Positions 7,327-63,970 of a stretch of 64,000 nucleotides of DNA are shown piece by piece. The position numbers and the translations under genes were made by a program. This DNA comes from a virus. How positions within the stretch are numbered: position 1 is the stretch's first letter; each line of letters begins with the position of its first letter. The DNA lies in the IMG/VR virus record IMGVR_UViG_3300050821_006280, positions 32,001 through 96,000 of that record; one strand, written 5' to 3'. The notes under the pieces are model-generated. The model did no database searches. It had not been told where the DNA came from and was given only the letters and a program-made list of their open reading frames with translations.

Positions 7327-7713
7327 TTAGCCGTTGAGCGCAGAAGGAACAGCTGTCGGTGGAGTCACAAGCTTCGACAGAGTTGCATCGACCAGCTTCG
7401 ACAACGAATCGCCAGCCTTCTGCTCTAGGTTGTGCTGCGCCAGTTCAGTGTTGACGAAGTCAATGACGGACTTCAGCTTCTGCTCACTTGGAGTTTTCGG
7501 TTTTCCAGCCTTGACTGCATTCTGCGATGCTTTCTCGGCAGCGAGGATTCCCTTCGTCACGAGATCCTGCACCTTGTCTTCGTAGGCCATCGCAGCGTCG
7601 AGATGGAACTTCTTGGCCAGCGCCGTGAATAGATCACGGGCAAGCACCAGAACTACTGGCGTTGCGATGGTGAATACGATCGGAATCAAGTTCTCCAGAA
7701 TCATCTTGAGCAT
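7327..7713 (-). CDS. Putative holin, LL-H family-like
   Basis: N-terminal TM helix, then the GILAAEK...SEQKLKSVIDFVNTEL pattern. Confidence 0.55.
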   Translation of the reverse strand: MLKMILENLIPIVFTIATPVVLVLARDLFTALAKKFHLDAAMAYEDKVQDLVTKGILAAEKASQNAVKAGKPKTPSEQKLKSVIDFVNTELAQHNLEQKAGDSLSKLVDATLSKLVTPPTAVPSALNG

Positions 7714-7725
7714 GAACAGCTCCTC

Positions 7726-7992
7726 TTATGACTTTCGTCGTCTCACCACAAGCGCTGGCTGAATCCGAGGTCTTTGTTCAGAAACCGGCTCTTTCTTCGC
7801 TTGATCGGCATTGCGAAGATACTGCAAAAGTGCCGTTTGGAAAACCTGGGCTGCCGTGCATCCCTCTTTTGCCGCCTGATCAGATATCAATCTATAAGTC
7901 GAAGCTGGAAGCACAAGAAACATGAATTCTGTCTCGGGTGCTTCACCAAGAATTTGGCTAGCCTCTCGAAGCGGCTCGCCTTTCACCTTCAC
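7726..7992 (-). CDS. Ribbon-helix-helix (CopG-like) DNA-binding protein
   Basis: FLVLPASTYRLISDQAAKEGCTAAQVFQTALLQYL; GTG start overlaps the upstream stop. Confidence 0.5.
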   Translation of the reverse strand: MKVKGEPLREASQILGEAPETEFMFLVLPASTYRLISDQAAKEGCTAAQVFQTALLQYLRNADQAKKEPVSEQRPRIQPALVVRRRKS

Positions 7993-56476: not shown

Positions 56477-56522
56477 TTGTCAAGAACCAACCTTGACAAA
56501 CACCCCCAGCCGACCGTAGACT
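56477..56522 (+). promoter_or_regulatory. tRNA-array promoter TTGACA-N18-TAGACT, with the -35 box inside a 9-bp inverted repeat
   Basis: TTTGTCAAG-N7-CTTGACAAA; -10 box ends ~6 nt before the first tRNA. Confidence 0.65.
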
Positions 56523-57065: not shown

Positions 57066-57138
57066 GCCTCCGTAGCCAAGCGGATAAGGCAGCGAACTTT
57101 TAATTCGTTGATCGCAGGTTCAAATCCTGCCGGGGGCA
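57066..57138 (+). tRNA. trnK: tRNA-Lys(TTT)
   Basis: GCGAA-CTTTTAA-TTCGT; T-loop TTCAAAT. Confidence 0.88.
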
Positions 57139-57724: not shown

Positions 57725-57856
57725 GCACCTGATGGTCAACGGTAGACCACCATCCTGAACAGATGGCAAATCAAATACCAGGATTGCACCTCGGCTCCTT
57801 ACGGAGCCAACTAGTGATCCTCACAAGCAGAGAAGGTTCGACTCCTTCCAGGTGCG
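57725..57856 (+). ncRNA. tRNA-like RNA (anticodon GAA, C37, G73) with a conserved domain inserted in the variable arm
   Basis: Acceptor GCACCTG/CAGGTGC; D, anticodon and T arms intact; insert at 57778-57828. Confidence 0.85.
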
Positions 57857-57862
57857 CAACAT

Positions 57863-57992
57863 GGCGCGTATGGGGATGGTCCCCAGCTCTCTTCCAAAGA
57901 GTGCAATATCCAGGATGGCACCTCGGCTTGAATAACAAGCCAACCAGCGATCCTCACAAGCTTTGTCGGTTCGATTCCGGCACGCGCCTCCA
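57863..57992 (+). ncRNA. tRNA-Gly(TCC)-like RNA (U73, CCA) with the same inserted domain
   Basis: Acceptor GGCGCGT/ACGCGCC; insert at 57910-57961. Confidence 0.85.
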
Positions 57993-58004
57993 CAGTAGCA
58001 ACAT

Positions 58005-58140
58005 GGGTGAACACAGAGGGAGGGTCCCTCGCCAGCCTTGATAGCTGGAGCCAAAAGCTCCCAGAATCACACCTCGATCTCAGCAATGGGATCAACTCGT
58101 GGTTCTTACACGCCATCCGGTTCGACTCCGGGTTCATCCA
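58005..58140 (+). ncRNA. tRNA-like RNA (anticodon TGA, U37) with a covarying copy of the inserted domain
   Basis: Acceptor GGGTGAA(C)/(G)TTCATCC; insert at 58061-58113. Confidence 0.82.
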
Positions 58141-58153
58141 CTGATTTGTTTTT

Positions 58154-58225
58154 GGGTGCGTAGCACAATGGAAGTGCAGTTGATTCTTAATCAATTGGTT
58201 CCGAGTTCGAGTCTCGGCGCACCCA
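58154..58225 (+). tRNA. trnK: tRNA-Lys(CTT)
   Basis: GTTGA-TTCTTAA-TCAAT. Confidence 0.88.
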
Positions 58226-59774: not shown

Positions 59775-59849
<75 letters not shown>

Positions 59850-59895
59850 GCTTGCAATTCAGGACATGTAACAGTACGCTGTTTAAGATCCAAAT

Positions 59896-59971
59896 GCGGG
59901 TGTAGCTCAATTGGTAGAGCGCTAGCCTTCCAAGCTGGATGCTGTCGGTTCGAGTCCGATCGCCCGCTCCA
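59896..59971 (+). tRNA. trnG: tRNA-Gly(TCC)
   Basis: CTAGC-CTTCCAA-GCTGG, U73, CCA. Confidence 0.92.
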
Positions 59972-60596: not shown

Positions 60597-61013
60597 ATGA
60601 AAAACGATCCAAAAGCCAAAGGGGAGCGATCGGAGGCTATGGTTCTAGCGGCACTTCTGCGAAGTGGCAAGTCCGTTCTGCGACCGTTCGGTGATAACGA
60701 GCGATACGATCTAGTCATTGACGACGGCGAAAAATTCTCCAGAGTTCAATGCAAAACAGCACGTCGGGTTGGAAACGTCCTTAAATTCGACACGTGTTCA
60801 TCGTATTCGCACCGCGGTGGGAAGAAAAAAGACTACCGCGGCCAGGTTGAGTTCTTTGGCATCTACAGTCCAGATGTCGATCGTGTATTCCTTGTTCCAG
60901 TCAGTCATGTTGGTACCACGAGCGCATCGCTTAGACTTACTCCGACTGTTAATGGCCAGCATGTCAACGTTAGGCTTGCTAGCGATTATGAATTGTCTTT
61001 CATTCCAGCGTAA
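60597..61013 (+). mobile_element. Free-standing PD-(D/E)XK homing endonuclease gene inserted into tRNA-Asn
   Basis: PKAKGERSEAMV...PFGDNERYDLVID...RVQCKT...YRGQVEFFGIY; last codons and stop form the 5' end of tRNA-Asn. Confidence 0.82.
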
Positions 61014-62414: not shown

Positions 62415-62487
62415 GAGACCATAGCTCAGCTGGTAGAGCGTCGCCTCGACACGGCGAAGGTCGCAGGTTCGATCCCTGTTGGTCTCA
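62415..62487 (+). tRNA. trnV: tRNA-Val(GAC), C33 variant
   Basis: TCGCC-TCGACAC-GGCGA. Confidence 0.88.
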
Positions 62488-62489
62488 CC

Positions 62490-62659
62490 GCTCCCGTTGT
62501 CTCAATAGGTAGACCCTATGGGTTCCTGAGAGGGAATGCGTGGGTCGCGCCGAAGTAAGCAGTGGCCTATTCGCGGTAAGCCACTGACGAACGGCATCCG
62601 TAAAGACAGCCATCCTTACGCATGGTGGATGCAGGTACCCAATCCTGCCGGGAGCGCCA
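62490..62659 (+). ncRNA. 170-nt tRNA-shaped RNA with a ~100-nt structured domain in the D-loop
   Basis: Acceptor GCTCCCG/CGGGAGC-G-CCA; D-stem GTCT/AGAC; 8-nt anticodon-like and T-like loops. Confidence 0.75.
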
Positions 62660-62664
62660 ATTCC

Positions 62665-62776
62665 GCTCGCGGAGCGTGTTAAACCGGGTTGATCACCGGC
62701 GAAGACCTAGATCCGCCCGCTACGGCAGGAGGCATCCTGCCAGGGATCAGACACGAAAGAACGTGCTGGCGAGCCA
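62665..62776 (+). ncRNA. Unassigned multi-hairpin RNA
   Basis: Closing GCTCGC/GCGAGC-CA; hairpins CCGG/CCGG, GGCAGGA-GGCA-TCCTGCC and CACG/CGTG. Confidence 0.5.
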
Positions 62777-62779
62777 AAT

Positions 62780-62855
<76 letters not shown>

Positions 62856-63900: not shown

Positions 63901-63970
63901 GGGCAGCGGTCTGGGACCAAGCGAGTCTCCAAAACTTGCTAGCGCATGGGTTCGATCCCCCGGCGGCCCG
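63901..63970 (+). tRNA. Atypical tRNA-Trp(CCA) with a reduced D-arm and 6-bp anticodon stem
   Basis: GCGAGT-CTCCAAA-ACTTGC; D-arm GGT-CTGGG-ACC; G73. Confidence 0.65.

Follow-up and report, generated by a model that had tools for sequence, protein, structure and literature searches.

In bacteriophage T4 the transcript of the transfer RNA (tRNA) cluster is a precursor not just of eight tRNAs but also of species I and II RNAs (PMC2330249), and what RNAC and RNAD do has yet to be established (PMC9697503). A man-made arrangement of a related kind is the engineered tRNA scaffold of Ponchon and Dardel, in which a structured foreign RNA housed in a tRNA body is precisely processed, escapes decay and is so stabilised in E. 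coli (PMC3753655). The subject of the present analysis is a gene of 170 nucleotides (nt) at positions 62490-62659 of a stretch of viral DNA, referred to below as the window, which comprises 64,000 nt (bases 32001-96000) of a 109.6-kilobase (kb) IMG/VR virus record, IMGVR_UViG_3300050821_006280, of estimated completeness 68%. The gene lies on the + strand of a phage tRNA array, between the genes for tRNA-Val(GAC) and tRNA-Thr(GGU), the latter at 62780-62855. It is a real RNA gene, tRNA-derived and non-random, and it is placed as a tRNA gene would be; what is new about it is that every tRNA arm has been kept while a separate folded domain has been added at a new site, RNAs of this general kind having been known since T4 species 1 and 2. 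The interpretation favoured here, to which we would give about an even chance of being correct, is that the product is a non-decoding, tRNA-shaped small RNA that is matured like a tRNA and is comparable to the species 1 and 2 RNAs of T4.

The coordinates of the cloverleaf frame are collected in Table 1. A preliminary description of this DNA had reported a perfect 7-base-pair (bp) acceptor stem with G73 and an encoded CCA end, all of which are present (an eighth acceptor pair, between C62489 and G73, is also possible), as are the anticodon stem and the T stem that it had described, each of 5 bp and each closed by an 8-nt loop, non-canonical in the case of the T arm. Taken together the stems comprise 21 pairs, with zero mismatches and a single G-U. 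It is in the region of the D-arm that the picture has changed. Here the earlier account had proposed a hairpin ATAGG/CCTAT and, more generally, a domain of some 100 nt in place of the D-loop; this hairpin, however, has a pair probability of 0.0, and its bases are those of the loop in a normal D-arm, so that the D-loop is not replaced. Instead, a canonical D-arm is kept and a 93-nt insert lies between it and the anticodon-like arm, which leaves intact the broader contention that a large structured cargo domain is carried by a tRNA-derived frame.

Table 1 Features of the 170-nt gene, its neighbourhood and the oversized tRNA-shaped genes of related arrays. Positions are those of the window unless preceded by an L-number; G000 is the record under study, G001-G004 are sister phage records, and L-numbers denote fetched stretches of these records.
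Feature	Position	Strand	Description
tRNA-Val(GAC)	62415..62489	+	ARAGORN call; Rfam tRNA, 66.4 bits; 3' end ...A-C-C; zero spacer to the 170-nt gene
Acceptor stem, 5' strand (RNA nt 1-7)	62490..62496	+	7 Watson-Crick pairs with 62649-62655; inverted repeat I7; pair probability 0.65-1.0
Canonical D-arm (nt 10-25)	62499..62514	+	4-bp stem GUCU/AGAC; 8-nt loop with GG
Insert (nt 26-118)	62515..62607	+	Between D-arm and anticodon-like arm, at tRNA positions 25/26
Insert hairpin 1	62515..62544	+	About 12 bp with one G/G mismatch; GAGA tetraloop 62528-62531
Insert hairpin 2	62549..62595	+	4-bp base, 7 x 5 nt internal loop, 7-bp helix, distal stem-loop
Anticodon-like arm	62609..62626	+	5-bp stem (one G-U pair); 8-nt loop CCUUACGC
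T-like arm	62631..62648	+	5-bp stem GCAGG/CCUGC; 8-nt loop UACCCAAU without UUC motif; pair probability 0.91-1.0
Acceptor stem, 3' strand, with discriminator and CCA	62649..62659	+	3' strand 62649-62655; discriminator G73 62656; encoded CCA 62657-62659
Structured spacer before tRNA-Thr(GGU)	62660..62779	+	120 nt; -47 kcal/mol, z = -2.5; repeats D3, D4, I3, I4
Three tandem genes, 126-135 nt	57725-58139		Variable-arm inserts; counterparts in G001, G002, G004
205-nt tRNA-Arg(ACG)-like gene	L106:3894-4102	-	G002, identical in G003; ~134 nt inserted in anticodon loop
112/113-nt gene	L103:3027-3142 (G001); L105:15098-15214 (G002)	-	Same in G003; D-stem encloses ~50 extra nt
105-113-nt genes			Long anticodon-type arms

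As to where the frame came from, its D-arm is in register with those of the flanking tRNA-Val and tRNA-Thr genes (77% and 85% identity respectively over 13 nt, repeat family D2), the match involving the loop and the 3' strand; a reading of three D-stem differences from tRNA-Thr as compensatory changes was withdrawn, because the repeat alignment implies a shift of register instead. The T stem is identical to that of tRNA-Lys(UUU) at 57114-57130, and between the acceptor stem and its equivalent in tRNA-Thr(GGU), downstream, there is a difference of one base pair, with the pairing preserved. The arms other than the T stem are unique among the tRNAs of the genome, and since they were thus not copied from these the frame must have diverged while nevertheless keeping every pair. 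Such a pattern fits selection on structure, although recent capture of a foreign tRNA would fit too. It may be added that ACCCA, among the T-loop bases (62637-62641), is complementary to UGGGU at both 62519-62523 and 62541-62545, a pairing that might substitute for the usual contact between D-loop and T-loop.

The insert, when folded alone, reaches -35.5 kcal/mol (z = -3.0), and it contains two hairpins. The first of these, with the GAGA loop that had already been described, is predicted at -16.6 kcal/mol (z = -5.35) with pair probabilities of 0.95-1.0 and accounts for 91% of the ensemble. The second (z = -2.7) has an inner helix of probability 0.99-1.0 and an outer helix of 0.64-0.66, separated by an internal loop in which 62553-62559 stand opposite 62587-62591; within this, AGUA (62554-62557) faces GAA (62589-62591) between the 4-bp and 7-bp helices. 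Both this long hairpin and its AGUA/GAA elements are therefore where the preliminary description had put them, while the loop-E fold that it attributed to them is an assignment by sequence pattern, the internal loop fitting what would be expected of a loop-E or bulged-G motif of the sarcin-ricin type. Two further ideas concerning the insert were considered and dropped, namely mimicry of signal recognition particle (SRP) RNA or of 5S ribosomal RNA by hairpin 2, which lacks support from Rfam, and a hammerhead core within CUGAGAG, which is mismatched to CUGANGA.

A direct repeat, AGAC, borders the insert (copies at 62511-62514 and 62604-62607), and the second copy is also able to close a D-stem with GUCU at 62499-62502. 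This long-range stem is the one that had originally been proposed, and the complementarity on which the proposal was based is indeed there, but the local D-arm GUCU/AGAC of 62499-62514 competes with it. Constrained folds gave -69.1 kcal/mol with the long-range D-stem as against -66.8 kcal/mol with the local D-arm and a self-folding insert, energies that do not clearly separate the two, and on this modelling both may form. A third fold is weaker (-58.8 kcal/mol), and in it either hairpin 2 or an outer helix pairing nt 27-31 with nt 132-136 would act as an anticodon stem holding an intron.

Could such a structure arise by chance? Folded in full, the RNA reaches -70.7 kcal/mol, with z = -3.4 relative to shuffled sequences. 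A scan was also made for frames that combine the four stems of a tRNA in their usual arrangement (acceptor, 7 bp; D, 4 bp; anticodon, 5 bp; T, 5 bp), with anticodon and T loops of 7-8 nt and a D-loop of any length from 12 to 220 nt. No such frame was found on either strand of 100 random 64-kb sequences generated from a first-order Markov model, while the real window contained the 170-nt gene and one other (7612-7759). A looser scan, for acceptor and T stems only, yielded about 140 matches per window, so that the significance of the gene rests on the complete cloverleaf, on its terminal CCA and on the lack of any gap to tRNA-Val rather than on the terminal stem by itself. The alternative that this is nothing but a chance fold in non-coding spacer, or else a small protein-coding region, gains something from the three short open reading frames (ORFs) of 42-55 codons that overlap the region of the gene; searches of Pfam and PHROG, though, returned nothing for these ORFs at E <= 1, and a coding role for them was dropped on that account, while one of them (48 codons) has its AUG merely 2-3 nt after GAGG. 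Given also the empty random sequences and the z-score, we regard this alternative as extremely unlikely.

The other frame found by the scan, at 7612-7759, lies on the - strand and has an 8-bp terminal stem, a D-type stem around about 80 nt and two further arms (-58.8 kcal/mol, z = -4.8). Within its large loop lie a ribosome-binding site, GAGGAG, and the start codon (ATG, 7713) of an ORF of 128 codons that belongs to the structural module, and its tRNA-like part shows no conservation at the DNA level in sister phages.

Judged against what is usual for a decoding tRNA, the 170-nt RNA has the 7-bp acceptor stem, the discriminator and the CCA end, together with a D-arm of 4-bp stem and GG-containing loop, but the anticodon loop is not one of 7 nt with U33 and a purine at position 37, the T loop is not one of 7 nt with UUC(R)A, and neither the tRNA covariance model nor ARAGORN detects the gene at standard thresholds. 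The loop CCUUACGC can be read as UAC (Val), being then an extra 5' C followed by CUUACGC, or else as ACG (Arg); the genome has a canonical tRNA-Val(UAC) gene and two canonical tRNA-Arg(ACG) genes. Since both loops have 8 nt and canonical tRNAs for either reading are already present, the 170-nt RNA is, to judge from its sequence, probably not a decoder. For it to act as one, the 93-nt insert would have to be spliced out as an intron, or else be tolerated in a tRNA whose 8-nt anticodon loop could read a four-base codon. It is true that deleting nt 26-118 in silico restores a 77-nt cloverleaf, which ARAGORN accepts at a 90% threshold (-ps90) and reads as acg, that G73 and CCA are encoded, and that ARAGORN finds tRNAs with 8-nt anticodon loops and four-base anticodons in relatives (taag, L103:2824-2901 (-) in G001; ctcg, L110:1536-1613 (-) in G004). 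However, the insert-less form is rejected by ARAGORN at its default setting and retains the 8-nt T loop without UUC, and no U precedes either of the four-base readings.

There is also the matter of how the insert might be removed. The introns known from bacterial tRNA genes belong to group I; they lie in the anticodon loop, are about 200 nt long or longer and have a catalytic core, and we know of no bacterial or phage system that splices between tRNA positions 25 and 26. The 170-nt gene does share with tRNA genes containing group I introns (RF00028) the property of being a tRNA gene interrupted by structured RNA, but its insert lies at positions 25/26, has 93 nt, too few for a group I intron, and finds no such match in Rfam at E <= 10. 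A decoding role of either sort is accordingly considered very improbable.

Of the RNAs described so far, those closest in position and presumed maturation are the products of T4 rnaC (139 nt) and rnaD (119 nt), which like the 170-nt gene are small non-coding RNA genes on the tRNA strand within the tRNA cluster of a T4-type phage. In rnaC a tRNA-type T arm adjoins the 3' terminus and a pair of long hairpins lies between the two ends, but with a canonical UUCGAAU T loop, a mismatched terminal stem and no D-arm, whereas the 170-nt gene has all four tRNA arms, an encoded CCA, an aberrant 8-nt T loop and an extra domain at the hinge between D and anticodon arms. The folds of the two RNAs differ, and R1, a covariance model made from the single 170-nt sequence, had no match at E <= 0.1 in T4 70500-73500. 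The mechanism proposed here is the same as that exploited in the engineered tRNA scaffold; there, however, the cargo replaces the anticodon stem-loop and the T loop is canonical, while in the 170-nt gene an anticodon-like arm is kept and the cargo lies between the D and anticodon arms. Transfer-messenger RNA (tmRNA, RF00023) also places a large RNA domain between the strands of an acceptor/T-arm module with a CCA end, but this identity (RF00023 / RF04321) was rejected, as the RNA has U3-A70 rather than G3-U70, no tag ORF, no pseudoknots and no tmRNA call from Rfam or ARAGORN, and the true tmRNA of the phage, a one-piece form, lies elsewhere, at the end of the tRNA array (L102:10238-10637 in G000, beyond the window; tag ANDNMYPAASLRAAA, 112 bits). 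A bacterial Y RNA of the YrlA type (RF02553) was likewise rejected, the ends of the 170-nt RNA forming an acceptor stem with CCA and not a Ro-binding stem with a distal tRNA-like module; weak matches to RF02553 do occur in the window, but at 59798-59946 and 58086-58207.

Searches for relatives of the gene gave uniformly negative results, an absence that is not absolute, as records very close to this genome may be missing from what was searched. No known RNA family matched in Rfam, an outcome that supports the preliminary description: at gathering scores and at E <= 10 (8 kb; 301 nt) the single hit was a noise match to b55 at E = 9.5, the tRNA model RF00005 leaving the gene unmatched even at E <= 10, and ARAGORN made no call on it with or without its intron options. 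Conserved homologues, the lack of which that description had itself named as telling against its proposal, were not found by blastn among GenBank phages or in five related records and all fetched arrays, nor with R1 in 44 related IMG/VR records; when its filters were switched off for a search of seven arrays together with the T4 tRNA region, R1 picked up only ordinary tRNAs or adjacent tRNA pairs. A gapped pattern based on the loop-E element retrieved no homologue from IMG/VR viral contigs or JGI metagenome contigs, and in GTDB genomes its 3 matches, as against about 2 expected by our own estimate, include none that forms the hairpin. A lipoprotein-like ORF of 126 amino acids adjoining the gene has four homologues in Logan (49-58% identity, that of 58% on a 116-kb contig), and the identical protein occurs on two other contigs; among viral contigs and JGI metagenome contigs it has no relative. 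A neighbouring ORF of 603 amino acids has no relative in viral contigs, and the small ORFs nearby lack conservation in the sister arrays.

The slot between tRNA-Val(GAC) and tRNA-Thr(GGU) is itself highly variable among the sister phages. It measures just 8 nt in G001 and holds two small ORFs in G004, while in G002 and G003 it contains a tRNA-Val(CAC) gene and the 205-nt tRNA-Arg(ACG)-like gene of Table 1, for which no group I intron match was found. Orthology of the 170-nt gene with this last was tried and rejected, only the short motifs AAGCAG and UGACGAA being common to the two and the alignment being unconvincing. Downstream of the 170-nt gene, the structured spacer has an outer stem (62665-62670 / 62768-62773), short copies of tRNA arms and a T-arm-like hairpin (62723-62741), and blastn found no homologue of it among the fetched sister arrays.

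Several of these observations would suit a quite different history, in which the gene is a decaying tRNA duplicate or recombination scar: a duplicate in a hypervariable array would have gained the 93-nt insertion with its 4-nt repeat borders, and its two loops would each have expanded by one base, leaving a functionless RNA that ribonuclease P (RNase P) nevertheless still excises. The AGAC direct repeat resembles an insertion or duplication junction (although no terminal inverted repeats were seen when the two ends of the insert were compared by eye), fragments of tRNA arms recur in the adjoining spacer, and inside the array, beside tRNA-Asn, lies a PD-(D/E)XK endonuclease gene (60597-61010; PF11645, E = 8e-34), which fits the idea of endonuclease-driven rearrangement. 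The changing content of the slot, the unconserved small ORFs nearby, the two 8-nt loops and the absence of the gene from every collection searched point the same way. What this history does not readily explain is that all 21 stem pairs are intact in arms unlike those of the genome's other tRNAs, since under neutral decay stems should be disrupted no less easily than loops are altered. The insert is, moreover, significantly well folded, GCCA is still encoded at the 3' end, the gene still directly adjoins tRNA-Val, and analogous insert-bearing genes are under selection in sister phages. We consider a scar, the main rival of the favoured interpretation, possible but somewhat doubtful.

It must be said that a number of points weigh against a functional RNA. 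The gene is a singleton across the collections searched, and the combination of a hypervariable slot with repeats of tRNA fragments is just what recombination debris would be expected to leave. The anticodon-like arm is thermodynamically weak (pair probability 0.06-0.08), and the T loop lacks the conserved motif that aids recognition of the elbow by RNase P and other tRNA enzymes. The conserved oversized genes of the clade and T4 rnaC all keep a canonical T loop of UUCGA type, which the 170-nt gene does not, and by comparison with these proven members it looks more degenerate.

The array of which the gene forms part is a large one. It occupies the + strand from 56.5 kb into the window onwards, ARAGORN calling 23 tRNAs in the window and a further 20, with one tmRNA, in the remainder of the record; CCA is encoded by 14 of these 43 tRNA genes. 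A strong promoter-like site, the only one of its strength, lies just upstream of the array at 56493-56522. With the 170-nt gene following tRNA-Val(GAC) directly, one cut at 62489/62490 would yield both the 3' end of that tRNA and the 5' end of the 170-nt RNA, the tRNA then terminating in ACC, one A short of CCA. We have also considered whether the element acts solely in cis, presenting RNase P with a tRNA-like site at which tRNA-Val(GAC) would gain its 3' end and be parted from the structured spacer, in the way of tRNA punctuation, the 170-nt RNA being then a by-product. The zero spacing and the truncated tRNA end are as one might expect on this account, as is the fact that the acceptor and T stems are the best kept helices and those of highest probability, but elsewhere in the array a tRNA is followed by a plain spacer or by another tRNA, and for such a purpose a strongly folded 93-nt insert and an encoded CCA would be unnecessary. 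On these grounds a purely cis-acting element seems unlikely.

If instead the 170-nt RNA is a product in its own right, its maturation can be envisaged as follows. It would be transcribed within a long transcript of the tRNA array, and RNase P would cleave at 62489/62490, recognising the 12-bp stack of acceptor and T stems together with the GCCA 3' end and at the same time freeing the 3' end of tRNA-Val(GAC). Bacterial RNase P makes contact with RCCA, and an encoded GCCA end would fit this. Trimming at the 3' side would then expose the encoded CCA. The RCCA motif is mentioned in PMC12710915. In the mature molecule the tRNA body would serve as a scaffold for processing and stability, as it does in the engineered tRNA scaffolds and as is assumed for T4 species 1 and 2, while the insert, with its loop-E-like hairpin and its hairpin with a GNRA loop, would project from the D/anticodon hinge. 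The insert would be the working part, and would most likely offer a protein-binding surface, for instance as a decoy or sponge for some tRNA-binding factor.

That tRNA frames can acquire such domains in these phages is clear from the sister records. Oversized tRNA-shaped genes are common in the arrays of G000-G004, where the extra RNA may be placed in the D-arm, in the anticodon loop or in the variable arm. Those that bear large inserts in the D-arm or variable arm share with the 170-nt gene the clade, the array context and complete acceptor and T stems, but they are non-homologous to it, have canonical T loops and are conserved in at least two phages. The most instructive is the 112/113-nt gene, found in three records only, which has a capped hairpin in place of the anticodon loop and is 90% identical between two lineages. 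Between these there are two compensatory changes of acceptor pairs, the anticodon-like hairpin has been re-paired, and no more than two bases differ in the insert of about 50 nt, a pattern which, as read from the aligned sequences, is that of a gene under selection for structure. The insert-bearing tRNA-shaped genes of the clade are real, selected and lineage-restricted. In view of the compensatory changes, the grafting of domains onto tRNA frames can be called a recurring theme of the clade, and the restriction of such genes to particular lineages makes the singleton status of the 170-nt gene less surprising. To this extent the general strategy of grafting that had earlier been suggested is supported by the other oversized genes; of the 170-nt gene itself no homologue was found in the collections searched.

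A wider proposal, which we offer tentatively and with a good deal of doubt, is that the clade uses the tRNA cloverleaf as a general cassette for new small RNAs, to be matured by the tRNA machinery of the host. Structured cargo domains would then be grafted at three or more different sites: the D/anticodon hinge would be the one used in the 170-nt RNA, the D-loop that in G001/G002, the anticodon loop that in G002 and the variable arm that in the three tandem genes. On this view the 170-nt RNA would have arisen recently and be confined to its own lineage, and its loop-E hairpin would bind a protein of the host or of the phage, perhaps acting as a decoy for a tRNA-directed defence or translation factor.

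Some other features of these arrays may be recorded here. The sequence at 63901-63969 resembles a tRNA and has a canonical T loop, UUCGAUC; it receives no call from ARAGORN and matches only tRNA-Sec in Rfam, at 20.5 bits, below threshold; by eye it has an anticodon-type stem of 6 bp and a loop of 9 nt. Genes of 105-106 nt are found at L102:8740-8845 (G000, beyond the window) and L110:1616-1724 (-) in G004, having acceptor, D and T arms but with a very long hairpin replacing the anticodon and variable arms. Matches to bacterial small SRP RNA occur within the tRNA arrays at L103:7127-7209 (-) in G001 and L105:19750-19793 (-) in G002 (42.1 and 40.7 bits, at or just above the Rfam gathering score), each preceded by a promoter-like sequence (TTGACA...TATTAG / CATTAG) and followed by an ORF start, and these may represent a mimic of 4.5S domain IV serving as a messenger RNA leader. 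As for the phage itself, its portal and prohead-protease genes match T4-type PHROG families, and tblastn with the portal protein gave 27-36% identity to T4-like phages of Flavobacterium, Microcystis and Synechococcus; judged by this protein it is a distant T4-type myovirus. It has many uncultured relatives in IMG/VR, of about 160-200 kb and with portal identities of 46-76%.

If the 170-nt gene should prove to be a mere scar, it would still document the fast turnover of these arrays. Whichever is the case, there is a consequence for annotation, in that tRNA finders miss genes of this type and the apparent spacers of phage tRNA arrays can hold RNA genes. If the gene is expressed, on the other hand, it would show how freely the tRNA frame serves as a natural carrier, and would provide a tractable case for asking what such a cargo binds.

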